Origin: a virus
Lineage: Duplodnaviria; Caudoviricetes
DNA length: 63,877 nucleotides
IMG/VR virus record: IMGVR_UViG_3300009027_000001
Span: 1-63,877 of that record
Reading direction: 5' to 3' (one strand)
In this document: positions 13,431 through 30,194 of the stretch, piece by piece
Layout of the letters: each line of letters starts with the position of its first letter
How positions within the stretch are numbered: position 1 is the first letter of the stretch
Program-made: the position numbers and the translations under genes
Notes under the pieces: model-generated
Told to the model about the DNA's origin: nothing
Database searches by the model: none
Seen by the model: only the letters and a program-made list of their open reading frames with translations

Positions 13431-14351
13431 ATGGCCAATTACACAGAAACATTTAGTGGCCAGACAACGGGTGCTAACAGTACGACGTTCACTAACCGAT
13501 GGGCGACCGAAACCAGCATCAGCGTCGAAAATCCGGCGATCGACGAGCAAGATGATCGCGTCCTGCGATTCAGTACGGGCGACAGCGGCTACCAGCTGCA
13601 AAGCATGGATAGCGTTGACTCAGACGGCAACCGTGCCAACTGCGAGATCGTGGCGCGAGTGCGAGTAAACGGCGACGACGACAACCTCGTGTATCTTATT
13701 GGCAGGGCCAGCGGAGCAGGAACCACCGAGACTGGTTACGTTTTACTCATTTCTAGCAACGGCACGCTGCGGATTTACCGAGCCGATGCAGGAACGCTTA
13801 CTCTAATAGGAGCGAACGGCCCGGACGTCGATCTTAAAGGGGTATCAGCATGGGCCGATTTTTTTGGCGACACCTACACCTACATGCCACCGAACGAATG
13901 GCTGCTGATGCGGTTTCGCATCAACGGCACCGGAGCAACCGTCACACTGTCGGGGAAAATCTGGGCTGACGGCCAAGAGGAGCCTACCGATTGGGATATG
14001 GTACGAACCGACACCAGCGCCAGTCGGATCACCACGGCTGGCTGGTGCGGCGTTGGACGAGGCGTTCATACGTTTACGACGTACTTGGATGCTATCGGCA
14101 TCGGCACCAACGGCGACACGGCAGTACTGCCAGCAGGTACCAGCCCGGTACGAGTTACCAACGTCGGCGGCCACGTGCTGCATCAAAATGAAGCCACGCC
14201 AGTTAGAGTTACCAACGTCGGCGGCCACGTGCTGCATCAATATGAAGCCACGCCAGTTAGAGTGACCAATGTAAGCGCTCAGGTTCTTTACACGCGAGCC
14301 GCAGAAGCAGCCACAGGGCAGACCATCGTAGCGTTCATTGGAACTGGTTGA
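13431..14351 (+). CDS. Tail-associated beta-sandwich protein with a C-terminal 18-aa tandem repeat
   Basis: PVRVTNVGGHVLHQ(N/Y)EAT about 2.7 times, 54-bp period. Confidence 0.65.
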   Translation: MANYTETFSGQTTGANSTTFTNRWATETSISVENPAIDEQDDRVLRFSTGDSGYQLQSMDSVDSDGNRANCEIVARVRVNGDDDNLVYLIGRASGAGTTETGYVLLISSNGTLRIYRADAGTLTLIGANGPDVDLKGVSAWADFFGDTYTYMPPNEWLLMRFRINGTGATVTLSGKIWADGQEEPTDWDMVRTDTSASRITTAGWCGVGRGVHTFTTYLDAIGIGTNGDTAVLPAGTSPVRVTNVGGHVLHQNEATPVRVTNVGGHVLHQYEATPVRVTNVSAQVLYTRAAEAATGQTIVAFIGTG

Positions 14352-14406
14352 CGGTGCCACGACTACCCCAGTAATATAGACAGGTTATTCAAGGTTATTC
14401 AATAAC
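14348..14406 (+). promoter_or_regulatory. Putative promoter and operator for the lysis cassette
   Basis: TTGACG-18-TAATAT, then AGGTTATTCA x2 and the palindrome GTTATT-C-AATAAC. Confidence 0.5.
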
Positions 14407-14425
14407 TCATAAAGGAACTGTATAA

Positions 14426-14650
14426 ATGAACATCTCAAACGAACAGCTAAAAGCAGCTATCAACTCTGGGCTGGTCATTACTGACCCGGCAAGCGAGGTA
14501 GCAGTACCCCTGAAACATGCTGGCGGTGTACTTATCCTCCATCAAGTTCTTCTTGCTGTTGCAAAGGGTGAACTGACTATCGTACAGGCAGAGGGCGACA
14601 TTGACCCCGCTGACCTGAAACCCGGTGGCACCAACGATGACGACGATTGA
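14426..14650 (+). CDS. Hypothetical protein
   Basis: AAGGA RBS; 74 aa. Confidence 0.65.
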   Translation: MNISNEQLKAAINSGLVITDPASEVAVPLKHAGGVLILHQVLLAVAKGELTIVQAEGDIDPADLKPGGTNDDDD

Positions 14651-15182
14651 CGACATCATCACAGACATCCTGAAGGCGGAAGGCTGGGATACGTACACCA
14701 ACGACCCAGTTGACCGGGGCGGTCCCACTAAGTGGGGCATCACCCTCAAGGCATGGCAGGACTACCGTGGTGACTGGACGAGCGTCAACGAGGACGACAT
14801 CAAGGCCATCACCGAGCAGGAGGCGCGGGATTTCTATAAACTCGAGTATGTAAAAGCCCCACGTTTCGATATGCTTCCACCGCTCCTTACCCCAATGGTG
14901 GTGGATTGTGGCGTCAATCATGGGGTACGTGCAGCCTCAAAATGGGTACAAAGAGCCGTGGGAGCCAAGCAGGACGGCGTCCTCGGTCCTAAAACCCTTG
15001 ATGCAGTCACCTCCACAAACCTGTTAGCAATCTACCAGCGAGTAGCGGCGTATCGGTTCCAGCTGTACGGAAAGATTGTATCTGGGGACCATTCTCAGGC
15101 AAAATACGCACATGGATGGAACAACCGTGGGTCTAAATGGTTGCTCCGGTTGGCAGACTACCTAGCAGGCGACGACACATGA
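14637..15182 (+). CDS. Endolysin, glycoside hydrolase family 108 with a peptidoglycan-binding domain
   Basis: EGWDTYTNDPVDRGGPTKWGIT (EGG...DPGG.T..GIT family motif), VDCGVNHG, DG.LGP.T, GW.NR. Confidence 0.9.
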   Translation: MTTIDDIITDILKAEGWDTYTNDPVDRGGPTKWGITLKAWQDYRGDWTSVNEDDIKAITEQEARDFYKLEYVKAPRFDMLPPLLTPMVVDCGVNHGVRAASKWVQRAVGAKQDGVLGPKTLDAVTSTNLLAIYQRVAAYRFQLYGKIVSGDHSQAKYAHGWNNRGSKWLLRLADYLAGDDT

Positions 15183-15634
15183 ACTGGTTGAAATCACTTT
15201 TCGGATTGGGCGAGATTGCAGGTGAGTACTTGAAGGACCGCCAGAAGCTCAAGCAAGAGCTGAAGATGGCCCAACTCAAAGGCAAGATTGACCTCGCCAA
15301 CGCGAAGGTTCAGGCCGCCATTGCACAGCAACAGCACGTGCAGACATGGGAACAGACCTACGTCAATATGCAGCGCGAGTCACTGAAGGATGAGATTGTC
15401 CTTGGTGTCGTGCTGCTGCCGTATGTCGGCGCGTTCATTCCTAGAGTGCAGGACCACATTCTGATCGGCTTCGAGTATTTGGCTAAGATGCCGTACTGGG
15501 CAGTCGGCCTCACAGTAACCATCTTCCTCGCTATCTATGGCATCCGCCACAAAAACGCGGCGAAGATTCAAGCGCCCGGTCTACGTGATGTAGACGTTAA
15601 GGAAAAGAGAAATGAAAACACATCAAGCGATTAA
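15179..15634 (+). CDS. Putative holin (two hydrophobic segments)
   Basis: ATGA overlap with the endolysin; SLKDEIVLGVVLLP and MPYWAVGLTVTIFLAIYGIR. Confidence 0.6.
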   Translation: MNWLKSLFGLGEIAGEYLKDRQKLKQELKMAQLKGKIDLANAKVQAAIAQQQHVQTWEQTYVNMQRESLKDEIVLGVVLLPYVGAFIPRVQDHILIGFEYLAKMPYWAVGLTVTIFLAIYGIRHKNAAKIQAPGLRDVDVKEKRNENTSSD

Positions 15635-16001
15635 CCAACTCCTGACATGTGTGTCAGTCGTCATTAAGGAACGGCACCTGCCTGAACTAGCAGAGGTTGT
15701 GAAGCAGGCTGGCACGCTCGTCAACTCTGTACACACTATGTCACTCGAGAAGATCGACGAGAAGCTCGCAAAACTCGTCAAGGATTTCGAGGCGAAGATC
15801 GTCGGTGGCGGTGAGGTTACGGCACAAGACCTAGTGATGGCCGGTGTCGAGCCGGTTGCGGTTGACGAGGAAGAAGATTTCACCCCGCTACCCGATGAGG
15901 TAGACGAGGAAGTCGCCGAAGCCACCATCGTAGTTAAGTCTCCCATCAAGGACCACGCTGCTGATGAAGACTTGTTTGACGATCTGGATGAGCTGATATG
16001 A
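15612..16001 (+). CDS. Acidic hypothetical protein
   Basis: ORF in the operon with a very acidic C-terminus. Confidence 0.6.
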
Positions 16002-16858
16002 AGATTGTACTCACAATCGCAACACTTATTCTCAGCACCGCTACATTTGCAGGTGGCAACAACGACGGCGAATGCGACCATCCAGTTTTTGTCGAAGTAG
16101 GCTGTGGTGAACCCGGTCCTGCTGGTCCTCCGGGTCCTGCTGGTCCTCCGGGTCCTGCTGGTCCTCCGGGTACTCCGGGTCCTGCTGGTCCTCCCGGCCC
16201 TGCTGGTCCTCCCGGCCCTGCTGGTCCTCCGGGTCCACAAGGTGAGCCGGGCGTCGTGGACTATACACGAGTCACAAAGCTGATTGATGAGTCGTATAGC
16301 TACCGCTTTGGTCGCTTCACTGACTACATGGCTGCATCCGCAGCACTTGACATTGACCTACCACAAGATCGTGGACATCGCCTTACTGCTACAGGTACAA
16401 GAGTAGATGGTAGGTCCGGTGTTGGTTTTGGTTATGCCTACATGAATGAAGACGGTGTCGCAATGAAAGCCGGTATCGCTCGCGCTGGCGATGAAAACAT
16501 TGTAAAGGTTGGCGTCAGCTTTGAGTTTGGTAATCGCAAGGAAGTTGCGGTATACGAAGCACCGAAAAACGATAACTACGACATGCTGCTGGCCCGTGTA
16601 AACGAGCTGGAACAACGCCTCGCGGCTATCCCGCAGGACGACGAAGTTGCGGTATATGCAGCGGAGCGGATTGAAGCGCACGAGGTAGTATCTGGCGCTG
16701 AGCACAGCGATCTGGCTACTAGGCTGGATGAGCTTGAGCAGCAGCGAAAAAGGGATGCAGCTCGCGCCGCGAGGATTGCTAGGGAGCAGGCAGAGTACGA
16801 AGCTGAACAACGTCAGTTCGCACAAGAAGCATTAACAGATTTGGAGAAATACAAGTGA
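15998..16858 (+). CDS. Secreted collagen-repeat protein with a YadA-like trimeric autotransporter anchor and a C-terminal coiled-coil extension
   Basis: Signal peptide ending TFA; 16 G-X-Y triplets (16106-16249); AASAAL..LP...[10 protein letters not shown]...KAGIA....VGVSFEF; then 109 helical residues. Confidence 0.7.
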
Positions 16859-17127
16859 TCCCAGAGTCAGCTAAATCGGTCGCCAGAAAAGTAGGTGAAT
16901 ATATTGCACTGCTTGCGGTGTTCGGTACAGTCGGCACGTATTGGATCAACACGGAAGTTGAGAGACGGATGGGTGAGCTGGCGGATGACCCCGGTAGCCA
17001 CCCAACTGTTGTTGCAAACTCGACTAAACTTGAAACCCTTGAGGCAGGTCAGGCACGTATCGAAGAAAAGGTTGATGCTTTCTCTGGCAAATTCCTTGAG
17101 TACCTAGAACGGCAGGCTGGGCAATGA
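16855..17127 (+). CDS. Membrane protein with an N-terminal TM and a C-terminal coiled coil (i-spanin-like topology)
   Basis: GTGA overlap; [16 protein letters not shown] followed by heptads. Confidence 0.6.
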
Positions 17128-17390
17128 CCTATGACAAGAGGGCAATGACCTATGAACAAGACGTCGAACTCCACGAAAGAGTTGCGAGGATCGAGGCCGA
17201 AGTTGACCATATCGACGCCATCGTCTCAGAGAGGCATGGTCGTATGCAGCGTATTGAGGACAAACTCGACGCTATGGAAAAGGATTTGGAGCGGTATCGA
17301 GGGACCGTTGGGGCTATTCTACTTGTCCTTACTGCTGTAACGACGTTCTTCAAGCTGTTCTGGCACGACCTACAAAGGTTTATCAAATGA
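17124..17390 (+). CDS. Coiled-coil protein with a C-terminal TM (holin/XhlA-like), duplicated start
   Basis: ERVARIEAEV...IEDKLD, then the TM VGAILLVLTAVTTFFKLFW. Confidence 0.6.
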   Translation: MTYDKRAMTYEQDVELHERVARIEAEVDHIDAIVSERHGRMQRIEDKLDAMEKDLERYRGTVGAILLVLTAVTTFFKLFWHDLQRFIK

Positions 17391-17887
17391 AGTATCGCGG
17401 CATTCAGCCATACATAGAGGACGACATTTCCATTGGCATCGAGAAAATGTCAGAAATCCTTGACGAGATCGCCCCCCTTCACAAAGCACACTACGCCGAA
17501 ACCGAGGAAGCCTACCTCGACGATCCCTACGACCCTGACTACGTAAGATTGTTCAGTCTTGAGGAGAATGGCGGGTACGTTGTATTCACGGTACGGAAAA
17601 ACATGGAATTAGTTGGTTATATCCAGTACTATGTCTTTCGGGACCTTCATACCCAACGTGTGTACACAGCCCGTGAGGATTGTCTCTACATCAAGCCAGA
17701 AGCGAGAGGGTTGGGTTTGGCCCCGAGGCTATTGAATTTTGCGGAACACGGCCTGCGCCAGCTGAATTGCAAATACGTAGGCATGACCAGTAAGTCACCA
17801 GTGGGCGGCCCGGACATCCGCCCGTTTTTGGAGAAGCGCGGCTACCGGATGGTCGCAGAGTACTTCTCAAAGAAGTTAGAGGATTGA
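17387..17887 (+). CDS. GNAT-family acetyltransferase
   Basis: EDCLYIKPEARGLGLA acetyl-CoA motif; LEKRGY; sits before the ejection genes as in many podoviruses. Confidence 0.85.
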   Translation: MKYRGIQPYIEDDISIGIEKMSEILDEIAPLHKAHYAETEEAYLDDPYDPDYVRLFSLEENGGYVVFTVRKNMELVGYIQYYVFRDLHTQRVYTAREDCLYIKPEARGLGLAPRLLNFAEHGLRQLNCKYVGMTSKSPVGGPDIRPFLEKRGYRMVAEYFSKKLED

Positions 17888-17890
17888 GAC

Positions 17891-18928
17891 ATGTGTTGCA
17901 GTTCGCCCCCACCGCCACCTGATCTTGGACCCAGCGCTGAAGCGTCGAAAGAAATTGCGGAGATGCAACAGCAAACTGCTAGAGAGCAGCTTGAATGGTC
18001 TAGAGAACAAGACACCATGAACCGAGAGCTACTCCAACAGGTGTTGGACGTACAGCTCCCGGCCATGCAGGAACAGTTTGAAACTGCATCGGCTGACCGC
18101 CAGCGCTACGAAGAAATGTTCCGCCCATTCGAGGATCAGTGGGCAGAGGAAGCGAAGAACTACGACACGCCGGAGCGCCGCGCACAGGAACGCGCCCGCG
18201 CCCTTGCCGACGTCAACACACAGTTTGATGCACAGCGCCGTAATGCCTTGTCGAGGCTTGAGTCCTATGGTGTCGATCCGTCGCAGACCCGCAACGCTGC
18301 ACTGGATGTCGGTGTACGCACCGCACAGGCCGCAGCAATGGCTGGTGCCGCTACGCAGGCCGACCGCCGTGTCGAGGACACTGGCCGGGCCTTGCAGTCT
18401 GACGTCATCAACCTTGGCCGTGGCGCACTGTCCAACGCCGCTGGCTTCTATGGTCAGGCCGTGAATGCTGGCTCTGCCGCACAAGGTAATGCACTCAACA
18501 CCACAGCCTCCGGCGCAAACGCTGTACAGTCCAGCCTTGGCTTCTCTGGACAGGCGTTGCAAGGTTATAACCAGAACGCCAACATTCTGTCACAGGGCTT
18601 TGGTAATCAGATGCAGTCATGGAACGCTCAACAGCAGCAGACAGCCGGTATGCTACAAGGTATCGGCGGTATAGCTGGTATGTTCATGGCAGACGGTGGC
18701 GAGGTAGAGAACCCTGTCGGTGGTCCGGCAGCGCCGTACACGGCTGATGGGCCGGTTGATGGGCCGGGCGATGGTTCGGGCGTGGATGACCGTGTCCCGG
18801 CCATGCTGTCACAAGACGAGTATGTCATCCCGGCAGACGTTGTACGGGCGAAGGGCGAGGAGTTCTTCGATAAGCTGCTCGAGAAGTACCACACACCTGC
18901 GTCACAACAGCGCAGAGGAGCGATCTAA
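17891..18928 (+). CDS. Internal virion / DNA ejection protein
   Basis: MCCSSPPPPPD start; Ala/Gln-rich helices; C-terminal GPGDG..DD.VPAMLS..EYVIPADVV segment. Confidence 0.7.
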   Translation: MCCSSPPPPPDLGPSAEASKEIAEMQQQTAREQLEWSREQDTMNRELLQQVLDVQLPAMQEQFETASADRQRYEEMFRPFEDQWAEEAKNYDTPERRAQERARALADVNTQFDAQRRNALSRLESYGVDPSQTRNAALDVGVRTAQAAAMAGAATQADRRVEDTGRALQSDVINLGRGALSNAAGFYGQAVNAGSAAQGNALNTTASGANAVQSSLGFSGQALQGYNQNANILSQGFGNQMQSWNAQQQQTAGMLQGIGGIAGMFMADGGEVENPVGGPAAPYTADGPVDGPGDGSGVDDRVPAMLSQDEYVIPADVVRAKGEEFFDKLLEKYHTPASQQRRGAI

Positions 18929-20814
18929 TGGCGGGTAATTCAGCACTGGGCGGATTCGTTGAAGGTTTGCAAGGTGGTATAACCCACCGGCAGCAGTCGC
19001 TCCGCAACAAGAAGATTGACCGGATGCTTGACCAAGAAGGCAAGATGCAAGCGATGGCGATTGAAGGCAAGCAAATGGACATCAACAAGGTCCGTGAGCT
19101 GAAGGGGCTGGCACCCCGTGACTTCACCCAGTTCGAGGCGGACCAAGACCCCTACGGGTTCAAGCTCGGTGATTTCTTCAAGCCCCGCAAGCTGTGGCAG
19201 AACTTCAAAGACAACACTGGCTTCGGCGGCGGGTCTATGGATGCCCCTACCTCCCCGGTGCAGTCCAACGAAGCGGCCATCGAAGATATGACCCAAGGAG
19301 CACAAGGCTCCTCGATGGGTATGCAGGGTAACACCGATGACATGTCGCTGATGGCCGCCGCTGATGGCGGGCCAGTCAGGAAGATGGCTAACGGTGGGTC
19401 CGTCGAAGAACAGCTCGACGCAATGGATCGAACTCGCCGTCCCAACCCCGGCTCAGCAGAATCTCAGCTAGACCGCGAACTCGATCAGAAGACCCGTGAC
19501 CGTATGAACGCTCGACAGAATCCGAGCCGTACACGTAAAGCACTTAATACTGGTAAGCGTGTGGCGGGTAAGGCGGCTCGGCTAGCGCGTGCTGGTGCTG
19601 GTGTAGGCGGCGCTTTAGCTGGGGCGCAAGGTGCGGTCCGAGGGGGTTTTACTGATACTGAACAGATGCGCCGAGAGTACACCATGCCAGAAGCCTTGAT
19701 GGTGGATAAGGACGATTCTGATTTTGAAATCTTCCTAAAGGATTTAGGCGCTCGTGCTATCGGCGTCGGTAACTATGTCGGCGATGCTGCTTTGGATATG
19801 GTTGGCTTTGGACGTGATGAAGCACAAGCACAAGCTATCCGTAGCTCTGACGTTGCACGTCCAACACAGCAAGAACCATCGGTAGCTGCCCAGCCACAGG
19901 CGGCAACGCCAAGAGCTGCTGTCCAGCCGCCCGCTGCACCCCAAGCCCCCGAAGTAACGGGTGGCCCGAACCAGCTGGCCGACGCCCCGATCACCGATCC
20001 GGGTGAGATGCCGACGATGAACACCGAGGAGTGGGTAGCCTACCGTGCCGCCAGTGTCGAGAGTATGCTGATGCAGGGTATGTCTCTCCCTGAAGCCCAC
20101 GATGCTGTCACCTCGATGCAGCAGAAAGGGTTCCTCAACTACGGCACACAGGCTCTACAGATGCTCGCAGCTGGTGATCCGGCTCGGGCAGCGATGGCGC
20201 TCAAGGCTGCGTACCAGTACTTCCCGAACGGAGTTGATGTCAGATTTGGCATAACCAAGGACAAGCAGGGGCAGCCCGCTCTCGTAGCGATGGGTGCCAG
20301 CGAGCAGACCGGCGAATCTACCGGCGCTCCCATGCTAATCACTGGTGAGCGACTGGCCGTGATGATGGAGAACATGACCAATCCGGATGCGTTCCGTACG
20401 TGGACGAAAGACTGGCGTGAGTTTGAGCAAGACCTCCGTAAATACTACGAGATGGAGAAGCCGCAGGCTGAGAGCGAGAACATCTATCGTGACCGTATGG
20501 GCCGAGCAGCGCTCAATCGCTCCGAGGCTGATCTTGTCGGCGCTTATAACGCTGGACGAGGGGGCGGTCGCAAACGCACTGACATGGACCGTAACTCTGC
20601 TGCTCTCCGTGACTACGTAGCAGAGTCCGGACTGCTTGAAGGCATTGATCCACAGACCCAACGATACCTCACACGTGTCATGGAAGCGCTATACCTGAAT
20701 TACGATATGTTGCAGGGTGAGATCATCGAAGAAGTGATGGTAGCCTACGAAAACAACCAGCTACCACAGCTGCTAGAGAGCTATGGACTGTCCAATGCCG
20801 AAAGTGATGAATAA
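18928..20814 (+). CDS. Internal virion / DNA ejection protein
   Basis: N-terminal LGGFVEGLQGG; Gly/Ala hydrophobic segment; TAATG coupling. Confidence 0.65.
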   Translation: MAGNSALGGFVEGLQGGITHRQQSLRNKKIDRMLDQEGKMQAMAIEGKQMDINKVRELKGLAPRDFTQFEADQDPYGFKLGDFFKPRKLWQNFKDNTGFGGGSMDAPTSPVQSNEAAIEDMTQGAQGSSMGMQGNTDDMSLMAAADGGPVRKMANGGSVEEQLDAMDRTRRPNPGSAESQLDRELDQKTRDRMNARQNPSRTRKALNTGKRVAGKAARLARAGAGVGGALAGAQGAVRGGFTDTEQMRREYTMPEALMVDKDDSDFEIFLKDLGARAIGVGNYVGDAALDMVGFGRDEAQAQAIRSSDVARPTQQEPSVAAQPQAATPRAAVQPPAAPQAPEVTGGPNQLADAPITDPGEMPTMNTEEWVAYRAASVESMLMQGMSLPEAHDAVTSMQQKGFLNYGTQALQMLAAGDPARAAMALKAAYQYFPNGVDVRFGITKDKQGQPALVAMGASEQTGESTGAPMLITGERLAVMMENMTNPDAFRTWTKDWREFEQDLRKYYEMEKPQAESENIYRDRMGRAALNRSEADLVGAYNAGRGGGRKRTDMDRNSAALRDYVAESGLLEGIDPQTQRYLTRVMEALYLNYDMLQGEIIEEVMVAYENNQLPQLLESYGLSNAESDE

Positions 20815-23800
20815 TGGCAACTTTCAAGGAGCGTTACGAGGAACTGTTCGGGCCAACGCCAGACTATGACCCGATAGCACAAACTGCCCCGGACGAGCTA
20901 ATCGGGCAGACTCGTCGCCGTGCGCTGGATATACAAGACGCTGCTCCTACTGCATCCCCGCGTCGAGCGGTTCCTATTCGTGACTTGTCTCCACCGGGTG
21001 AGGAGCAGGGTGCTATCTCTGGCCTGCTCAAGACAGGTGCCTCGAAGGTCGTGGCCGAACCGCTGGTCGGTGCAGCTGAGTACCTGACCCGGCAGACCAC
21101 AGGACGGCTCGGGTGGGAAGGCCCTACCGAAGCCCTGCAAGGAGTGCGGGACGATCTGGCCCAGTGGCGCGAAAGCGTCTACGCCCGGATGAACCCGGAG
21201 GTCATGGACATGGTGGGCCGGGAGCTGCTGACTCTCGACCCCGACAGGACTATCTGGCGTGGAAGCCCTCTCGATGTCGCCGAGGCTGTTGCATACAAGG
21301 TTATAGAACAGACACCCTCCCTGCTCGCTACACTGGTACCCGGCGCGATAATGATGCGGGCCGGTGCGATGGGCAAGGGAATCCAGTACCTTAGCGCGTC
21401 CGAGGCGGGTATATCACTGGGTGCTATACAGAACGAGATCGCTGACGGCATTAACGAGATGTCAGCTGATGAGCTGTCGGCTGAGTCGTTCCGTTTCAGA
21501 CAACTGATGGAGGAGTACGGTGACGAAACACAGGCGCGAGCCGACCTTATACGTGAAGCGCAGGGAATGGCACCCGTTGTCGGCGGTGTCGCTGTCGGAG
21601 CAATTTCAGCTGCCGCTGGTCGATACCTCGCACCTGTCTTTGACGATGCGGCTGGCCTTGGTTTCGGCCAGCGCGTCGGTCGAACTGCAATATCAGAGGG
21701 CCTTATCCAAGAAGGCCCGCAGGAATCTATCGAACAAATAGCCAGCAACATCTCCGCCGCTGTCTACGATGGTGACCGGGACTTGCTGGAAGGTGTGGCC
21801 GAGTCCTACGCACAGGGCGCTCTGCTCGGTGCCATCATGGGTGGTGGCGTCGGCGGTATACTCGGGCGTGGTCGGCAGGAGGAGCAGACGCCCCCAGAGC
21901 TGGACACGCCAGACGCCCCCAGTGCCTTCACGCCGGGCCGTGGTGGTCCCCGAGGGCCACAGCAGGCACTACCCCTCGACTTCGGTGAGGAGCAGCGCTC
22001 AGGCCCTATCACGCAGCAGGAGGATATGTTCGCCATACCGGACGAGCTGTTCGACGAGCAGGGCAACTACGTGGGTAACGTGGCTGGACAGGCCGCCGCT
22101 GCACAAGAGGAAAACATCGTTGATCCGGCTATCCGGGCGGCTATTCAGGCGAACATCCGTTCCGATCAGAAGATGGACGATATGTTCCAGACTAACCCAC
22201 AGCGGGAGCAGGAGTATCCCAGCCAGAACATACAGACTGAGATGTTCCCGAGGGCTGCTCCGACTGGTGGGTTACCAGCTCCTAACACCCGTCCTGTACC
22301 TGCTGAAGACCCGATGGCTCCGGAACAGCAGGAGATGCTGCCCGGCCCAGAGAAACGTACGCTTGGTAACAGGCGTACAGAGATGTATGACGCCCCAATA
22401 CCCGAGCCGCAGGTAGACATCTCGGCACAGATGGATCAGTTGGCACGGGGTATGCGTGATGGCGTCTATCTCGCTGCCGAGCAAGAGGTTGATCCTGCCA
22501 TCCTTGGGGACTTCCCGATGGTGCAGGACTTTGATGGTCGTGGCGGTGACATGATCTTCAAGGATGAGGAGACTGCCGACCAGTGGATGGAGGCGCTGGC
22601 GAACAGCAACCCCGAAGACCTGCAAGCCATCCTCGGTGAGATCACCGGGGCTGGTACTGGTAAGCCGATCGACGGTCGCCTTGCTGTACAGAAGATCGGA
22701 GAGAACGGAGGCGTCGAGCAAGAGACGCTGGTGTCCACCCTCGAAGAAGCACAACAGGTGCAGGAGGAGATGGGGGGTGAGACACGTGTACTGACGGCTG
22801 AAGAAGCTATAGCCCGCCGGGAGATGATGGCTGCTGACGACCTGTTTGCTGAGCCTGAACCAGAACCAGAGGGTACGCCGGGCGGCACACCTCGCACGGG
22901 TACTGGTCGTCACCGTGTGCGTTTCACTGATGATGCTGGGCAGGTCATTGAAGACCGCACGTTCAGCGACGTAAGGAGAGCGAACAAATATGCAGATCAG
23001 CTGGCCGACGAGTACCAGCTGGCTCAGCCTGAAGCTGATGCCCGCATTACTGTCACCCCGATACGCACTATGCCGAAGCGCAAGACCAAGCCTACTCAGG
23101 ATGAACAGAAGGCTGAGCTTGCCAAGCGAAAGAGAAAGGCTACGTATAAGACAGAAGGTGAAAAGGTAGCTGACGAAATACGCAGGCGTGTACCGTTCGA
23201 TGAGCGTCAGGATATGACTGAAGCGGCAGCTAAGGCCGGTACTCGAGAGGAAGCTGCACAGAACCTCCTACGCCTCGCCGCTAAGCAGATGGATGAAGAA
23301 CAGGCTCGCTCTATCGACGGGTTCTTCCCGCCTGACAGCTACGAGTTCAAGAACAAGCAGCTGAAGCAGGATTACACCGATGCGTGGCAGGCTCTCTACG
23401 AGGCTGACTTCATCGCTAAGAACAAGGCGGTCATTCCGCTTGAGTTTCGTGGGACTGTTGTCTCCAAGGCTAACCGAGACAAAAAGAAAGCCCTGAAGAA
23501 GATCGAGCAGGTACGGGAGGGGTCGAATCCCCGCCGTAAGGTCGAGAAGGCTGTCCGCGAAGCTCGATACACAAGTGAGGCAGCTGTTGCACAGTTGTCC
23601 TACAACGAACGTAAGATCGCTGAGCGCCTCGGGATCGAGATGCCCACCGATGCACAGAAGATGGAAGCGGAAATCCTGTCTGAAACACAGCAGCAGTTAG
23701 CAGACTTCCGTGAGTCGAAGATAGCAGAAGACGCTGAGGAAGATACCTACGTCGCCGCTATGGTGGAGGCTACCGCCCCCCGTACCAAGGACGACTCGGA

Positions 23801-26800
23801 CCAGCCCATCGGCGATACGCTGGAAGGCCCGGTCTACCGCTTCGACATGAAAACGACGAAGAAAGAACTGGAAGCACTGACCGAATCTGAACTGAACAAC
23901 GTCTTCGATGATGCGTTACGGTGGCGGCAGTCCACCAACAAACGTCTTAGCGATGGCCGCATCTCTGAAATGAAGCGAGAAATCACAACTCGCTCCGAGA
24001 GGATCAAAGAGATTATGCGGGCCGTAGTCAGTATGCGAAATAGCGCTGGCACGGAAGCACGGGCTAAAGGCGCATACATCGTCACCAACGTCACTAACAA
24101 GAAGGGTGGCGGCATCCGGCGTACGACTGTACGCAGTGGCCCGTTGACCTCCTCGTCAGAGAAGTACGAAGAAGGTGCTGACAAGCTGAAGGCTCGGGCT
24201 GAGAAAGCCAAAAAGATATACACCGATCTGTCGGACAACCTGAAGGGTGCCTTGAAACGTCTGAAGGCTGTGGCACCTGAGACTGATGAGTACGGCAACC
24301 TGACGGAACTCGGGCAGGATGAGGTCATGGGTATCTGGTGGGCTGAGTCGCTGGCTGAACTAGGGCAGGCTGTAGTTGAGAGCCGTAGGACAGACGACCC
24401 TGCTATGGAGCTGGCTAGTAAAATATCTACTGGCCTAAAACGTGTTGCCGGTAAGACCTCTGACCGTCTGTTTGGAACTGTCTTCGCCGACGCTGCTCGT
24501 CAGACCCTCATCATCAATGCGAAGGATATGGGCAAGGACCTCGCTACGATTGCAAAGCAGGTCAACAACTTCAATGACAAACTCGAGGCTGCTAACCGGC
24601 TGCACGAGGCCAAGAAAAAGTGGGTCAAAGACAGCGACTACAAGCAGTTCATTAAGCCGATCATCCGTAAGTTCCACGAGTCGTACTGGAACAACAAGGG
24701 TACGTACTACCCGACGCTGGCTGAAGCGGCAAACCTCAAGTGGGTACTAGACAACTACCGAGCGCAGGGCAAGAAAGATGACTTCTACCTGCCGCTGCGA
24801 CGGGTGCTGGAAGATTTCGGCTTCAAGTTCAAAAACAATACGCTAATCGTCAATGAGGTTGACGGCGAGTTCGACTTCACCCCGAAAGACGCTCACCTGA
24901 TGAACCGTTTTCGCCGTAGCGACCCGATCATTATGGACAGGACAGTCGTACGCCGTGAGACGGATAAACCTTACGAACCTGTCACCCTTACATACAGGCG
25001 TCCTGAAGGGGAGCTGGACAAGCGCATCGCTGAGCGTGAGAAGCGTACGGAGAAAGATCAGTTCATCGCTAAAGAGGAGCTGGACTCGATCAAGCATGTC
25101 CGTGCATCAGCCATCTTTGCACGGTTCCGTAAGATCGTGGACAACCCGAAGACCACGAGAGATAAGCTGGTTGATGCCGAGCTAAAGCTGCTTGAAGACC
25201 TAAAGAAAGAGGGTTTCCTGACCAACGTCGGCGCACAGATGGTGACTATTAAAGTACCTGACCGTCCGACGATTAGCCTCCGTCGTTCTGCACGAGCGCT
25301 GGACGACGGTATACTGACTAAGAGGGAAGCCCGCAGTCGCATGGCCTCCATCCGCAAGTCATACACCAAACCCCTATACAGGCACGAAAGTAAGGTCGGG
25401 CGCTACGCTGGTAGCGTTGCCGGTACAGCTATTGCTGATACCGAATCTGAGTGGGTATACAAAAAGCTACCGGGCTTTTTGCTTAAAAACATTAAGCCTA
25501 AACGGGTATACACTACAGCAGCTAACAAACTGCATGAGAAAATCAAGTATTCAAACTCAAGAATCTCGCTTAACGAGGCACTCGACATAATCATCGAGAC
25601 TCTACCTTCGTCTGACCCCTTGGGTAAGGTCGCTAGACAATTACGCAGCGTAGATGTCACCCGTGGTATCGGCCTCGGATATGCGTGGGGGATGAAGTAC
25701 GCGGTCGGTGGTTACTGGAATGAGTCAGGGCGAGTAGACATTGACTTTGAGTATTTCTACGGAGAAGAAGCGCTAAGCAAAACGAATAAAGATTTGGTTG
25801 ACGCCCAGTTTCTACAGGTAGTACTCCATGAAATTGCCCATGCAGCAACAGTAGAATCTATAGATCGCAGTCAAACGGCTGAGGCTATCATAGATGAACT
25901 AATACAGCAGGGGCAGCAAGCGTGGGGAAGACAACATACCGGAAAAATTCTGGAACGCATTCTTATTAACGATAAGTTCTTTAAGCAAAGGAAGTTTAGT
26001 GACGTAGCATCAAAGCAAGAACTCGCTGAAATTTTTACAGCTGAAATAAGTTTACAAGAGCCGAATAAAATTGCTTACATCAACAAGGTCGGTGACGACT
26101 TTGAAGTAATAGTTAAAGCCGCAAAAGACAAGCCCTACGGTTTTACCAATCCACATGAGTTTGTTGCTGAAGCATTTTCAAATCCTGAATTTCAAGATTT
26201 CTTAAAGGCTACCAAGTTCAACAAGAAGAACTGGCTGTGGGATGAATTCAAGAAAGCTGTGTTTAAGATTCTCGGTATTAAGACTGACGAAAACCTTGAC
26301 ACCATTTGGGATGTTGTACTAGCAGCAACGCCAGCGTTGACCAGATACGCAAACAGTTATGACCCGAGTAAATACCATTGGGAACCGGGTGGTAAAAAAG
26401 ATATGCGACCGTACGGAGAATACGTACAAGAGGCTCGTAAAGATATAAACAGCCATCGTCAAGCATACGACGATGCAGGTAATCAGCTTGGCGACTTGCT
26501 GAATGATCGCTACCGTTTGCGCGGGGCCAATACTGTACTTCAGTCACTCATCAGCTCACTGCCTGAACGCAGCGCACTAGGGATTACTGCTCGCAAACTG
26601 GCTGAGCTGGACCTAAGCGATGTTACGGTTCGCTGGGATTGGACTAATCTCATCAAGAACCCCGACACTAATGGTGTTTACCGTGGCAAACATCGCCGTG
26701 TAATCCTTGCACGTAAGGATGGAATGTCTGGACACAAGCTGGCTCGTGTCACGTTACACGAGCTGATGCACGCTGCTACGCAGGAAAGCCTGCAACGCAA

Positions 26801-29800
26801 CCAGACGCTTCGTTCACTGATGACAGATGTCCAGAGTGAAGTACGCCAAAAACTCATGGAGCAGTTCCCTGTTGGTAAACTGCCGTATGGTTTGCGCCCG
26901 CAGGATCAGGTCGATGAGTTCGTAGCAGAAATGTTCTCGAACGAAGCTATGCAGCAGGCAGCTAAGACCACTATGCTTGATAGCCGGATGTCTCTGTGGA
27001 GCCGGTTCAAAGACTTGGTCAAGCAGTTACTTGGTTGGGTGGGGGACTACGAAATTTCAGCTTTCGATATGGTTATGGAATTGCAGCCGCAACTATTCGA
27101 GTATGCTGAGTTAGACAACCCCAACGCCCCTGACCTATATCACGGAGACGTAGCATTAGGTAATAAAGCTCGTGAGGTTTGGAACAGAGCTAAGATGACC
27201 TACGACATCGAAAACCGAGCACGTACGGCTGCAACACAAGGCGCGACAATCTTCGGGCGTGGCAAGTTGAGCCATGCGTTCCACTCCATGCGCCAGCTGC
27301 GTGAGCGTTATGAACAGTACTTCGGCGGGAAAGAAGGTCCACTGGCGAAGTACATGGATGCGTTCAACGCTCGCAACTCCATGAACAATGAACTGATGCA
27401 GATGCCTGAACGCCTGTCACGTAAATGGTCAGAGTTCGAGCAGAAGCACGGTGTTAAGGTAGCTAACGATTTCAGTCAGCTTGCTACTGAAGCTACCATG
27501 CACACGCTCGACCCGAGCAAGGTCGCTGGGCATGAGAGGAACAAGAAGTCTGCAAAGGCTCAGCCGACTATGTATCGTGAGCTGCGTGCCCGGTACCAAG
27601 CGTTGCCGCAAGACTACAAGGATTTGTGGGCAGAGGTTACAGACTACTACCAGTCATCGCTTGAACAAGAAACCGGCCTGATGATGCTCAATGCCGTACG
27701 CGGAGTCGTCACCAAGGGAGCCGGTGAGACGATGGACCTTGGGACGTTCAACCGCAAGTACAACGAGACGAACATCCTGAAGTTCAGCACGCAGGAAGAA
27801 ATCTTGGCTGAGTTCGGTGAGTTCCTTGGTGAAGATGCTGCAAACCTCGCCAAGTTCATACAACGGGTGGCTAACGTACCGGCCATGAAACAGGGGGTCT
27901 ATTTCCCCCTCATGCGCTACGGGGAGTACGCTGTCTACGCCAAGACCATGCGTGACAAGAAGTACTTTAAGGACAGCCAAGCTGCACGGAAGTACGCAGC
28001 CGACCAGCGTCTTGAAGACCCGACCTACTCTGTCAACACACGTGAGGAAAGTGATGGACGGTGGAGCGTGCAGGTCACGGAGAGTGCTTTCGTCATGGGT
28101 GAGACTATCACCGAAGTGATGGAGAAACGCCAACAGCTGGTAGACGAAGGCTACGACTGGGTTGGAGATGTCGGACGCAAGCTAGAGATGCCGAGAGAGT
28201 CGGCGATCACCTCGAACGCAGCGCTGTCCAGCATCCTTGAAACGCTGTCGGATAATGCAGCTGCACAAAACGCGATCAAGCAGTTCTACTTGCAGTCGCT
28301 TTCCGATCAGTCGTTCCGTAAGAGAGAAATCAAACGACAGAACCGCCGGGGTGTGGACTACTTCACGCAGCATCGCAACTTCGCCAACTACGCTCGCCAG
28401 TCTGCTTACTACAGGTCACAGCTGAAGCATGGCTGGCAGATGGCGAAGGGGCTGTCTGACATGCGTGACTTCCTGAAGGACTACCGACAGGGCGCGAGCA
28501 AGATGTCTCGCGTCCAACTGGACAACGTGTACGAAACGCTGAAGACACGTGATGAGAAGATGACCGACCCAGTACAGCTCCACAAGGCTGTGCGGGGCGG
28601 CATCGCTCTGACCCAGTTCTACATGCTGACCAGTGCTTCCTACCACATGATTAACAGCACGCAGCCGTGGATGGTGTCGCTGCCCACGATGGGAGGTCGC
28701 CACGGCTGGGGCCAAGCCTTCGCAGCTATGAAGGGAGCGCAAGCCCTCATCAAAGACCCGATCTTCAGTCAGATAAAAGAGTCTAAGGGTGGTCTGGCGC
28801 TGCTGAAGAAAGGCAACCTCGCTGCCGAGCGTGCCTTCGGCGTTTTCGATCAGCTGCGTGATAGTCTCAAGGCCAACGACGCTCGTGCGGACGAGCACCT
28901 CGAGATGCTTGACAAGCTACGTAAGACAAGCGTGTTGGAAGTCTCCCCGCTGACGGAGCTGCGAGAGATCGCAACGGGCAAGGAGTCGTGGACGACGAAG
29001 GCGATGGATGCGTCACGTGCGATGGCGCACATGGTCGAAGTGAACAACCGCGTTCTGACGGCTATCGCTGCCTACGATTTGGAGTACGCCCGCCAGAAGA
29101 ACGGGGGGGCAGGCGAGGAAGCAGCACGAGAAGCGGCCACGCAGTACGCCGAGGACATGGTATCGCAGACGCAGTTTGACTACTCGACGGCCAACAAGCC
29201 GCCCGCGTTCCTGCGTTTCCCAATCGTGTTCCAGTTCATGCAGTGGTCGCAGCACATCTACGCACACATCATCCGCAACACGGCAGCAGCTCTGAAGGGC
29301 GACAAGGACGCCGCCAAGATTCTCGGTGGCGTTCTCGGTACCCACGCTGCCGTAGCTGGCGCACTGGGTGTGACGTTGCAGCCGATCAAGATGGCCTTCG
29401 GTCTGGCGATGATGGCGCTGGGCGATGAAGACGAGCCTTACACGTGGCAGAACGCCCTCAGCGGTGCGACCTTCGACCGGGTCACTACTTCGGCGATGAA
29501 CGAATTGTTTGGTACAACTGTTTCAACAGTGCTCGGCAAGGGGCTACCCGCCGGGCTGGGCATTGATCTCTCTACGCGCATGTCTTTGGGAACCCTGTTC
29601 TTCATCGACCTGCGAGGTGACACCCCTGAGTCGGTGGCTGGTTCACTGCTCTCATCCTTCGGAGGTGCGAGCGTCAACCAAGCTCTGACGTTTGGTAGGG
29701 GTATACAGTACATGGGTAGCGGCGACATAATGAAGGGCCTTGAAGTCTTCTCCCCCAAATTCCTTCGTGACATTCTCCGGGCTGGCCGGTTTGCGTCCGA

Positions 29801-30194
29801 GGGTTTGGTGAACAACTCCGGTGACACTGTGCTCGACACCAGTGCGCTAGGGTTTTACGAGACGGCATTGCAGGCAGTAGGATTTACTCCAACAGCTATT
29901 GGACAATTCTACGAAGGGCAAGCAGCAATCAAAGATAAAGAAGCCTACGTACGGAAGCAAAAAATCAGGTTGATGAAAGACTTTCGTACATCTAGTGCAG
30001 CCGGGCGTCGTGCGATCATAGATCAGATCGTTGAGTTTAACAGCTCATTCCCACAGGAAGCGATCACCCGGTCTGCGCTCCTTCGCAACCTGAAGGGCAA
30101 ACTCGAGCGTGAACTTCAATACGAGCGATATGGAGCAGCGATAGATGAGAAGAAAGCAGCACTCTACGCCGGTTATGGCGAACCCTACCGTTAA
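20814..30194 (+). CDS. Giant (3126 aa) ejection / polyvalent protein with two zincin-like HExxH domains and a PLxRFG-type motif
   Basis: LHEIAHAAT...HEFVAEAFSN and LHELMHAAT...DEFVAEMFSN; YFPLMRYGEY; Gly/Ala-rich hydrophobic helices near both ends. Confidence 0.75.
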   Translation: MATFKERYEELFGPTPDYDPIAQTAPDELIGQTRRRALDIQDAAPTASPRRAVPIRDLSPPGEEQGAISGLLKTGASKVVAEPLVGAAEYLTRQTTGRLGWEGPTEALQGVRDDLAQWRESVYARMNPEVMDMVGRELLTLDPDRTIWRGSPLDVAEAVAYKVIEQTPSLLATLVPGAIMMRAGAMGKGIQYLSASEAGISLGAIQNEIADGINEMSADELSAESFRFRQLMEEYGDETQARADLIREAQGMAPVVGGVAVGAISAAAGRYLAPVFDDAAGLGFGQRVGRTAISEGLIQEGPQESIEQIASNISAAVYDGDRDLLEGVAESYAQGALLGAIMGGGVGGILGRGRQEEQTPPELDTPDAPSAFTPGRGGPRGPQQALPLDFGEEQRSGPITQQEDMFAIPDELFDEQGNYVGNVAGQAAAAQEENIVDPAIRAAIQANIRSDQKMDDMFQTNPQREQEYPSQNIQTEMFPRAAPTGGLPAPNTRPVPAEDPMAPEQQEMLPGPEKRTLGNRRTEMYDAPIPEPQVDISAQMDQLARGMRDGVYLAAEQEVDPAILGDFPMVQDFDGRGGDMIFKDEETADQWMEALANSNPEDLQAILGEITGAGTGKPIDGRLAVQKIGENGGVEQETLVSTLEEAQQVQEEMGGETRVLTAEEAIARREMMAADDLFAEPEPEPEGTPGGTPRTGTGRHRVRFTDDAGQVIEDRTFSDVRRANKYADQLADEYQLAQPEADARITVTPIRTMPKRKTKPTQDEQKAELAKRKRKATYKTEGEKVADEIRRRVPFDERQDMTEAAAKAGTREEAAQNLLRLAAKQMDEEQARSIDGFFPPDSYEFKNKQLKQDYTDAWQALYEADFIAKNKAVIPLEFRGTVVSKANRDKKKALKKIEQVREGSNPRRKVEKAVREARYTSEAAVAQLSYNERKIAERLGIEMPTDAQKMEAEILSETQQQLADFRESKIAEDAEEDTYVAAMVEATAPRTKDDSDQPIGDTLEGPVYRFDMKTTKKELEALTESELNNVFDDALRWRQSTNKRLSDGRISEMKREITTRSERIKEIMRAVVSMRNSAGTEARAKGAYIVTNVTNKKGGGIRRTTVRSGPLTSSSEKYEEGADKLKARAEKAKKIYTDLSDNLKGALKRLKAVAPETDEYGNLTELGQDEVMGIWWAESLAELGQAVVESRRTDDPAMELASKISTGLKRVAGKTSDRLFGTVFADAARQTLIINAKDMGKDLATIAKQVNNFNDKLEAANRLHEAKKKWVKDSDYKQFIKPIIRKFHESYWNNKGTYYPTLAEAANLKWVLDNYRAQGKKDDFYLPLRRVLEDFGFKFKNNTLIVNEVDGEFDFTPKDAHLMNRFRRSDPIIMDRTVVRRETDKPYEPVTLTYRRPEGELDKRIAEREKRTEKDQFIAKEELDSIKHVRASAIFARFRKIVDNPKTTRDKLVDAELKLLEDLKKEGFLTNVGAQMVTIKVPDRPTISLRRSARALDDGILTKREARSRMASIRKSYTKPLYRHESKVGRYAGSVAGTAIADTESEWVYKKLPGFLLKNIKPKRVYTTAANKLHEKIKYSNSRISLNEALDIIIETLPSSDPLGKVARQLRSVDVTRGIGLGYAWGMKYAVGGYWNESGRVDIDFEYFYGEEALSKTNKDLVDAQFLQVVLHEIAHAATVESIDRSQTAEAIIDELIQQGQQAWGRQHTGKILERILINDKFFKQRKFSDVASKQELAEIFTAEISLQEPNKIAYINKVGDDFEVIVKAAKDKPYGFTNPHEFVAEAFSNPEFQDFLKATKFNKKNWLWDEFKKAVFKILGIKTDENLDTIWDVVLAATPALTRYANSYDPSKYHWEPGGKKDMRPYGEYVQEARKDINSHRQAYDDAGNQLGDLLNDRYRLRGANTVLQSLISSLPERSALGITARKLAELDLSDVTVRWDWTNLIKNPDTNGVYRGKHRRVILARKDGMSGHKLARVTLHELMHAATQESLQRNQTLRSLMTDVQSEVRQKLMEQFPVGKLPYGLRPQDQVDEFVAEMFSNEAMQQAAKTTMLDSRMSLWSRFKDLVKQLLGWVGDYEISAFDMVMELQPQLFEYAELDNPNAPDLYHGDVALGNKAREVWNRAKMTYDIENRARTAATQGATIFGRGKLSHAFHSMRQLRERYEQYFGGKEGPLAKYMDAFNARNSMNNELMQMPERLSRKWSEFEQKHGVKVANDFSQLATEATMHTLDPSKVAGHERNKKSAKAQPTMYRELRARYQALPQDYKDLWAEVTDYYQSSLEQETGLMMLNAVRGVVTKGAGETMDLGTFNRKYNETNILKFSTQEEILAEFGEFLGEDAANLAKFIQRVANVPAMKQGVYFPLMRYGEYAVYAKTMRDKKYFKDSQAARKYAADQRLEDPTYSVNTREESDGRWSVQVTESAFVMGETITEVMEKRQQLVDEGYDWVGDVGRKLEMPRESAITSNAALSSILETLSDNAAAQNAIKQFYLQSLSDQSFRKREIKRQNRRGVDYFTQHRNFANYARQSAYYRSQLKHGWQMAKGLSDMRDFLKDYRQGASKMSRVQLDNVYETLKTRDEKMTDPVQLHKAVRGGIALTQFYMLTSASYHMINSTQPWMVSLPTMGGRHGWGQAFAAMKGAQALIKDPIFSQIKESKGGLALLKKGNLAAERAFGVFDQLRDSLKANDARADEHLEMLDKLRKTSVLEVSPLTELREIATGKESWTTKAMDASRAMAHMVEVNNRVLTAIAAYDLEYARQKNGGAGEEAAREAATQYAEDMVSQTQFDYSTANKPPAFLRFPIVFQFMQWSQHIYAHIIRNTAAALKGDKDAAKILGGVLGTHAAVAGALGVTLQPIKMAFGLAMMALGDEDEPYTWQNALSGATFDRVTTSAMNELFGTTVSTVLGKGLPAGLGIDLSTRMSLGTLFFIDLRGDTPESVAGSLLSSFGGASVNQALTFGRGIQYMGSGDIMKGLEVFSPKFLRDILRAGRFASEGLVNNSGDTVLDTSALGFYETALQAVGFTPTAIGQFYEGQAAIKDKEAYVRKQKIRLMKDFRTSSAAGRRAIIDQIVEFNSSFPQEAITRSALLRNLKGKLERELQYERYGAAIDEKKAALYAGYGEPYR

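Follow-up and report, generated by a model that had tools for sequence, protein, structure and literature searches.

What is a gene for a putative surface collagen protein doing among the lysis genes of a phage, and why does its product run on far beyond its membrane anchor? The question is raised by a locus in IMGVR_UViG_3300009027_000001, a 63,877-bp IMG/VR virus record (Duplodnaviria; Caudoviricetes) analysed here over its whole length (the window). The open reading frame (ORF) at 15998..16858 encodes 286 residues that combine collagen triplets, a YadA-type autotransporter anchor and a C-terminal helical tail, and a 90-residue membrane protein is encoded directly after it. A first-pass annotation had read the pair as a barrel-anchored analogue of the spanins, which join the inner and outer membranes, or alternatively as a surface adhesin or receptor mask on infected cells. 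We tentatively favour a collagen-stalk autotransporter at the cell surface with the small membrane protein as its inner-membrane anchoring or assembly partner.

The domain architecture and fold class of the autotransporter are clear (Table 1). Its N-terminus is hydrophobic and signal-like by inspection, forms a helix at residues 2-13 in an AlphaFold2 (AF2) model, and is kept in all 63 full-length relatives according to a hydropathy script. Cys26 and Cys36 are invariant or nearly so among 32 diverse homologues. The passenger is Collagen, and neither YadA_head nor YadA_stalk has a Pfam match in the 286-residue protein. Pfam YadA_anchor (PF03895) scores 21.5 bits on the whole protein, under the cut-off of 22.7, and 25.3 bits, over that cut-off, when the anchor segment is scored by itself; of 23 homologous segments, 21 match it at E≤0.01. 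A profile of these 23 segments finds the YadA anchor 2lme as its best PDB sequence (E 0.0035), with the terminal FEF of the family aligned with YadA residue 104 of 105. The AF2 monomer, built from an alignment of the 32 homologues (mean predicted local distance difference test score, pLDDT, 79.9), shows a helix at 89-116 and four strands in 127-175, and its five best Foldseek matches in the PDB are all autotransporter anchors, namely Hia (3emo, 2gr7 and 2gr8), AtaA (9vnj) and YadA (2lme), with E values from 4.6e-5 to 2.5e-3. The signal peptide, cysteine pair, 16 collagen triplets, anchor to FEF177 and 109-residue tail that the first-pass annotation had described thus all stand with unchanged coordinates, and its assignment to the YadA type is borne out by the segment score, the 2lme profile match, the model and Foldseek.

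We also considered and rejected a "tail fibre" identity drawn from PHROG matches, which are explained by the collagen repeats; the phrog_5073 match reaches residue 203, and matches to the NCBIfam models for Scl1/Scl2 and Lcl fall far below cut-off. "Collagen-like tail fibre" labels on such proteins are therefore wrong.

The anchor does not lie at the extreme C-terminus, as 109 residues extend beyond the aromatic end of FEF177. This tail is helical at 192-210 and 217-285 in the AF2 monomer, with pLDDT up to 98. Trimer formation and topology are predictions. Since the last strand of the YadA-type anchor fold ends on the periplasmic side, the tail must, on this fold, be periplasmic, in agreement with what had been proposed from the sequence. 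The premise that autotransporters normally end at the last strand was too strong, as a periplasmic tail follows the barrel in about 12% of trimeric autotransporters according to the available text of 10.64898/2026.01.22.700529. The nearest Atlas clusters are YadA_anchor proteins, mostly from Bacillota, which we take as a lead only. We note an internal duplication in the tail at 16529-16760 (residues 178-255).

The partner has a short basic N-terminus, a hydrophobic segment at about residues 15-33 and a helical acidic remainder. The hydrophobic segment is only moderate (mean hydropathy 1.34 over 17 residues). The protein has no family match in Pfam, PHROG or NCBIfam and no similarity to the Rz families of Pfam and PHROG; its nearest Atlas clusters, again a lead only, are viral hypothetical proteins of 87-96 residues. 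That the coupled next gene encodes an N-terminally anchored membrane protein, as had been noted, agrees with this segment and with the 4-nt overlap of the two genes.

The long tail and the partner gene co-occur strictly. In 16 of 16 long-tail loci, an ORF of 87-110 residues with an N-terminal hydrophobic transmembrane (TM) segment and an acidic helical remainder starts between 52 nt before and 2 nt after the end of the autotransporter stop codon, whereas no small TM gene lies downstream in any of three tail-less loci (L009, L035 and L037). Gene co-occurrence was one of the checks proposed with the earlier annotation, and it speaks for a link between tail and partner. The 16 loci are those of the window, L003, L005, L007, L011, L020-L023, L025-L027, L030-L032 and L034; left out were L006, whose contig ends 98 nt after the stop, L008, whose gene is cut by the contig end, L018, L024 and L038 as near-identical copies, and L028, L029, L033 and L036, which share contigs with counted loci. 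The association is strong because the 16 loci span about six clades.

Do the two proteins touch? We modelled a 3:3 complex of tail residues 178-286 and partner residues 32-90 with our own alignments and three controls. Three runs gave docking scores of 0.76, 0.76 and 0.75, and none of the three controls scored above 0.00; the runs agree in at least 76% of contacts, and the partner has a pLDDT of at least 83. Only tail residues 270-286 and partner residues 72-90 make contacts in the model. In the calibration of the complex tool, its mark was reached by 58 of 80 solved complexes and 2 of 110 mismatched pairs, figures that are only roughly valid for our own alignments and 3+3 copies. The model supports tail—partner binding without showing it, and with it an outer-to-inner-membrane bridge is supported in silico; the pairing of the extension with the inner-membrane protein that had been postulated stands as a modelled contact (0.76 against 0.00).

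The docking segment coincides with a recognisable tail motif, ..EQRxFAQEALxDLEKYK. In other clades the tails end in a similar amphipathic ..AAxxAL.. pattern, and the partner ends are uniformly acidic. The C-terminal helical module of the tail (..AQQALxDLExYK) also ends two proteins that have no anchor, P0081 (228 residues, with its own signal peptide and a Cys-rich N-terminal part) and P0111 (113 residues). The docking module may therefore be mobile.

A sceptical reading of the same data would hold that the protein is ordinary adhesin-type cargo with an incidental tail, that the TM neighbour is unrelated, and that the docking is a helix-packing artefact. Coiled coils do readily pack together spuriously, homology of the partners across clades cannot be demonstrated, and the calibration of the complex tool does not extend to 3+3 copies or to our own alignments. 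Against this stand the co-occurrence in 16 of 16 against 0 of 3 loci over about six clades, the three controls at 0.00 and gene overlaps that suggest translational coupling of the autotransporter and its partner. We regard an incidental tail as improbable.

In the reading we favour, the Sec system would export the autotransporter, and three copies (the monomer being what was folded) would together make a 12-strand outer-membrane barrel in the host. The 16 triplets would be threaded to the cell surface as a collagen triple helix about 14 nm long with a small disulfide-bearing N-terminal cap, and the 109 C-terminal residues would be left in the periplasm, where they would form a trimeric helical rod. 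With its tip, this rod would dock onto the C-terminal tips of three 90-residue inner-membrane proteins, so that the pair would make a rod anchored in both membranes. Nucleating, anchoring or stabilising the trimer would be the most likely role of tail and partner. The selected product would be the surface collagen stalk, serving as a shield, in the exclusion of further phage or in adhesion, and the pair would not itself be the spanin that disrupts the outer membrane for this phage. We infer both the anchoring or assembly role and any function at the surface.

What, then, does the family conserve? Only 12 close relatives came out of a word-based search. With residues 86-286 as the query, exhaustive HMMER searching gave 101 cluster representatives at E≤1e-3, 31 of them at E≤1e-10. 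We collected 108 proteins, of which 106 have the anchor and 63 look full-length. All 63 carry the signal-like N-terminus, the cysteine pair and 7-30 collagen triplets (median 16). The tail varies: 17 of the 63 have none and end at the aromatic residue, 8 have a short tail of 33-58 residues with exactly two cysteines each, and 38 have a long tail of 61-147 residues. The conserved core of the family is the surface part with the barrel, and the tail is optional. The family is essentially one of uncultured phages, found almost only on uncultured viral contigs: tblastn with the full-length sequence and with two further members of the family as queries gave no match in 50,697 phage records, and a pattern scan of 185,579 species genomes found the family once. 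The loci were searched with sub-alignments, alignments A2 and A5 being too diverse.

The setting of the module varies as well. It lies in lysis cassettes or, in L022, L023 and L034, beside a 204-residue gene, which from its sequence alone we take to be a small terminase gene. The three tail-less loci with context lie outside lysis cassettes; one adjoins a fibre-like gene, and two stand amid large non-membrane genes (591 and 650 residues; families not searched). In six loci with short, cysteine-bearing tails, the gene adjoins one for a hydrophobic peptide of 43-51 residues, downstream in five and upstream in one. The tiny ORFs of this size that follow short-tail genes (L013, L014, L016, L017 and L019) have one or two predicted TM segments (for example, ..LLMLGALLLMWLIITGIY..). 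Two genes upstream of a short-tail member, L012 506-1012 encodes a 168-residue protein with an N-terminal hydrophobic segment and an above-cut-off Pfam match (E 8.9e-7) to PagL, the lipid A 3-O-deacylase; it is a candidate for phage-borne remodelling of outer-membrane lipid.

Could the pair instead be the spanin of this phage? On that proposal, the barrel trimer would replace the o-spanin lipoprotein and the 90-residue protein the i-spanin, and once the endolysin has removed the peptidoglycan, the complex would collapse or oligomerise and thereby disrupt or fuse the outer membrane. Position speaks for it, as the pair follows the endolysin and a holin candidate with 4-nt overlaps and related modules lie beside four different endolysin families; so does the modelled C-terminus-to-C-terminus docking (0.76 against 0.00). 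Tail and partner together also supply 153-209 periplasmic residues across 15 loci (166 in the window), similar to Rz plus mature Rz1. According to the available text of 10.1101/515445, about 15% of phages have no recognised spanin, so that unrecognised outer-membrane disruptors are to be expected.

A further argument for the spanin analogue is that no lipobox gene in the complete genome is plausible. A six-frame lipobox scan of the whole genome yielded 17 start variants, of which none is on the + strand of the cassette, and a relaxed scan of 14350-17900 gave 4 matches, none of them plausible. The earlier observation that no lipobox o-spanin or u-spanin was found in the cassette holds in both scans; since the pipeline missed 2 of 6 positive-control lipoproteins, this absence is good evidence rather than proof. 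The autotransporter has no lipobox of its own, as its signal ends at TFA/GG with no cysteine at the cleavage site, and the 129-residue acidic protein encoded before it has no significant family match in Pfam, PHROG or NCBIfam and, by inspection, no signal peptide or canonical lipobox. The one free-standing candidate, a minus-strand ORF at 1229-1495 whose counterpart in the relative G005 is canonical, was rejected as a lipoprotein, being antisense to three tiling + strand ORFs. The related Rhizobium phages likewise have no obvious lipoprotein in their lysis region, which counts against the spanin analogue in that the absence may be a trait of the lineage.

The relatives argue against it more directly. 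In 6 of the 16 loci (L020, L025, L026, L027, L031 and L032), the gene directly upstream of the autotransporter gene encodes a protein of about 142 residues with the build of a unimolecular spanin: it has a canonical lipobox and a start rich in proline, is helical in the middle and ends in a hydrophobic C-terminal tail (..RGLIALG..). The gene before that one overlaps it and encodes a lysine-rich helical protein of 97-109 residues with an N-terminal TM segment. This upstream pair looks like a mixed two-component and unimolecular spanin design, and it has no PHROG spanin match. In the complete genome G003, the module, there adjoining the 204-residue gene, lies 21 kb from a conventional cassette. 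This cassette encodes an endolysin (phrog_465, E 4.8e-28), one protein with two TM segments and two with an N-terminal TM segment, and its overlapping lipoprotein gene gives a match to phrog_456, "Rz-like spanin" (E 6.3e-9). Another complete genome, G002, encodes a 64-residue lipoprotein with no family match and no lysis context.

Spanin-type genes therefore coexist with the module in relatives, which argues against a general need for the module in outer-membrane disruption at lysis, and 17 of the 63 full-length members stop at the aromatic residue. Both findings had been named with the first-pass annotation as refuting it, and the spanin analogue is not supported in the form first proposed. 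Relatives without a tail are found outside lysis cassettes, it is not evident why a spanin should need a universally conserved surface collagen stalk, and neither protein is similar to spanin families in Pfam or the PHROGs. We consider a spanin analogue doubtful, and the alternative offered with it, in which infected cells display a surface protein, has become no less likely. A bolder form of the idea, which we think unlikely, is a third structural spanin class in which a barrel-anchored trimer and a type II trimer join tip to tip and collapse after wall degradation; it would be the only outer-membrane lysis device in this lineage, and a second, redundant or host-specific one where lipoprotein spanins coexist. 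The module is evidently not the spanin in at least 7 of 16 cases and, on the premise of one job per conserved module, the anchoring or assembly reading is ranked first.

Several observations nevertheless weigh against a surface autotransporter with an anchoring or assembly partner. The autotransporter gene is coupled inside a lysis cassette, where spanin genes usually lie, and the lipobox scans left the complete genome with no plausible lipoprotein spanin. The homologues adjoin four unrelated endolysin types: GH108 in the window, M15 in L008 (phrog_465, E 2.7e-52), phage lysozyme in L011 and a CHAP-like type in L020. The protein has no head or adhesive domain. An inner-membrane helper explains assembly and not why the contact should persist. 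Homology between partners of different clades is not supported (hhalign probability 3.4%), so that "one partner family" is an architectural and not a phylogenetic statement. Finally, the phage looks virulent, which counts against a classic role in lysogenic conversion.

One more explanation is raised by the neighbouring genes. The rigid link from surface to inner membrane might serve lysis timing or envelope sensing by signalling what happens at the cell surface, or the state of the wall, to the membrane proteins of the cassette, with the 90-residue protein acting like an antiholin and the 88-residue product of the third coupled gene like its holin partner. The size and topology of the partners (about 90-110 residues, one weakly hydrophobic segment) resemble those of RI, the antiholin of T4, in many loci the partner gene is followed by a third gene for a small TM protein, and the genes are coupled with the holin candidate and the endolysin. 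In the window, the 88-residue protein matches phrog_689 "holin" (E 1.3e-6) and phrog_937 "hemolysin" (E 1.4e-3). Against such a device, no similarity to any antiholin was found in Pfam, PHROG or NCBIfam, the third genes of different clades show no similarity to one another, the module lies far from lysis genes in some genomes, and the argument proceeds throughout by analogy; we give it a slim chance. The third gene was also considered as a homologue of the partner and rejected, as it has no match to the partner profile.

Table 1. Positions of the predicted genes and protein features of the locus in the window, with the upstream gene pair of related loci in the last row.
Feature	Position	Strand	Basis or remark
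74-residue ORF, function unassigned	14426..14650	+	No Pfam or PHROG family match
Endolysin, GH108 and peptidoglycan-binding domain	14625..15182	+	Glyco_hydro_108 E 2.8e-22; PG_binding_3 E 3.6e-9; phrog_315 E 5.6e-39
151-residue protein, two hydrophobic segments, holin candidate	15179..15634	+	phrog_2524 (unknown function) E 1.8e-16
129-residue acidic protein	15612..16001	+	Stop overlaps autotransporter start (ATGA)
Mini autotransporter, predicted trimeric, 286 residues	15998..16858	+	Pfam, PDB profile, AF2, Foldseek
Signal peptide (predicted)	Residues 1-19	+	Hydrophobic N-terminus, site TFA/GG (inspection)
Collagen triplets, 16 uninterrupted G-X-Y	Residues 37-84 (16106-16249)	+	Pfam Collagen PF01391 E 1.2e-8
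Pore helix	Residues 89-116	+	AF2
Four-strand YadA-type anchor	Residues 127-177 (16376-16528)	+	Ends VGVSFEF at 177
Helical tail, predicted periplasmic	Residues 178-286 (16529-16855)	+	109 residues beyond FEF177
Tail tip, predicted docking surface	Residues 270-286 (16805-16855)	+	3:3 model interface
Putative inner-membrane partner, 90 residues	16855..17127	+	GTG start, 4-nt overlap with autotransporter stop
Partner tip, predicted contacts	Residues 72-90 (17068-17124)	+	3:3 model interface
88-residue protein, N-terminal helical, C-terminal TM (residues 62-78), third coupled gene	17124..17390	+	Hydropathy script
GNAT acetyltransferase	17387..17887	+	Acetyltransf_1 E 1.8e-11; cassette end, before virion genes
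Upstream lipoprotein gene pair in related loci	L020 4029-4725; L025 2372-3041; L026 4341-5004; L027 4059-4728; L031 3246-3909; L032 2234-2903		

The cassette in which the pair lies begins after 14352-14425, the only intergenic gap upstream of it, with the 74-residue ORF as the first gene after that gap, and its gene order up to the GNAT gene is the same in L003, L005 and L007. The autotransporter gene overlaps both of its neighbours by 4 nt, and the endolysin gene is by our count two genes upstream. The start of the 151-residue gene overlaps the endolysin stop; homologues of its product in L003 and L007 have two TM segments by hydropathy script, and it is a holin candidate by position. Conservation of the 74-residue first gene and of the third gene in L030 was rejected after BLASTP gave no match. 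In a blastn search with the 8-kb region, the matches were confined to collagen repeats and a single lysin stretch.

A promoter-like site lies at 14348-14377, in a class of sites no more frequent than in shuffled sequence. Scanning 12-19 kb for promoters and terminators gave 3 and 7 sites where shuffles gave 4.9 and 6.5, no improvement on shuffled sequence, and an operon boundary therefore cannot be claimed. Contigs from RNA libraries of four runs cover the cassette, and two of them, of 960 nt and 663 nt, reach from the autotransporter gene through the entire partner gene to the start of the third gene; as assembled contigs from libraries that may contain DNA, they are no proof of transcription.

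A near-perfect direct repeat at 17119-17160, in which the phrase around GGGCAATGACCTATGA occurs twice, spans the partner stop and the start of the third gene. In one RNA-library contig and in the relatives L003 and L005, 21 nt are missing there, which shortens the third protein from 88 to 81 residues. Just before the cassette, a 306-residue protein (13431-14351) carries three tandem copies of a motif of about 16 residues (..TPVRVTNVGGHVLHQ..) near its C-terminus. In the cassette of one related clade, a secreted protein of 130-133 residues with an Ig-like domain match (PF25523, E 4.3e-6, at cut-off) adjoins the CHAP-like lysin upstream of a holin-like gene (L020 3316-3717; L027 3036-3437; L032 1192-1584).

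The window is a complete virus genome with direct terminal repeats (estimated 100% complete) and a G+C content of 53%. The + strand carries all genes from 1 to about 32 kb, among them those for the major head protein (phrog_267, E 6e-54), fibre proteins and a "DNA transfer protein", and the opposite arm holds polymerase, primase/helicase and helicase genes. With its own polymerase, primase and helicase and no integrase among the 20 large ORFs scanned, the phage looks virulent; no tRNA genes were found in the genome. Its closest cultured relatives are Rhizobium phages, with a capsid identity of 53.8%. After two virion-protein genes, a 3,126-residue ORF (20814-30194) matches large phage proteins (phrog_10089, E 3.2e-54; phrog_37402, E 9.8e-69), one of them labelled DarB-like antirestriction, and probably encodes an ejected internal virion protein. 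Every sampled 31-mer of 14400-17900 is contained in 14 DNA runs (estuary, sediment or soil labels; 2018-2025; 14 study codes), and some of them are also present in 6 RNA-library runs. This would point to a widespread and unusually invariant phage, unless the runs all come from one campaign.

If the bridge is real, two small proteins would suffice for a phage structure that starts at the cell surface, crosses the outer membrane and the periplasm and reaches the inner membrane. Such a structure would give autotransporter biology its smallest natural passenger, in the form of a collagen helix that comes with its own partner in the inner membrane, add to what is known of phage lysis and envelope remodelling, and provide protein engineering with a minimal trimeric scaffold for surface display. 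We found no description of such a phage autotransporter in the literature searched, including the available text of 10.64898/2026.01.22.700529.

How, then, does the pair compare with known systems? Bacterial Scl1/Scl2 and Lcl and collagen-repeat phage tail fibres share the G-X-Y triple-helix repeats; their matches cover only residues 37-85, and the protein described here has neither an LPXTG motif nor a fibre C-terminal domain. The Eib immunoglobulin-binding autotransporters of E. coli are likewise trimeric, prophage-encoded and displayed on the host surface. They differ in being larger, with YadA-like stalks, in ending at the anchor, and in being lysogenic-conversion genes of temperate phages. 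As in SadA/SadB, where the inner-membrane lipoprotein SadB helps SadA, and in AtaA/TpgA, a small envelope protein that would bind or assist the anchor region is encoded beside a trimeric autotransporter; unlike SadB and TpgA, the partner here would be a type II membrane protein that touches the end of a long tail and not the barrel.

The spanins resemble the pair in their adjacent or overlapping lysis-cassette genes, in combining one outer- and, for our pair by prediction, one inner-membrane protein, and in helical periplasmic parts; Rz and Rz1 join through their C-terminal ends, and the ends of our pair do so in the model. The likeness is limited, since the outer component here would be a beta-barrel with a surface passenger and not a lipoprotein, trimeric and not dimeric. 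Moreover, the pair in the window has no periplasmic cysteines and no homology to spanin families, and relatives carry spanin-type genes in addition. The spanins meant here are the two-component (lambda Rz/Rz1) and the unimolecular (T1 gp11) kinds as defined in the available text of PMC9636201.

A likeness in architecture also exists to trimeric autotransporter adhesins such as VtaA, VtaE and VtaF of Veillonella parvula, which, like the protein described here, continue from a YadA-type anchor into a helical periplasmic tail; deletion of the coiled-coil tail destabilised three Veillonella adhesins (available text of 10.64898/2026.01.22.700529). Adhesins of this type are large bacterial proteins with head and stalk domains, found almost all in non-proteobacterial diderms, and the available text of the same source describes no dedicated inner-membrane partner for them. 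In contrast, the protein of this locus is phage-encoded, has 286 residues and a bare collagen passenger, and its tail is tied to the gene of a small membrane protein.

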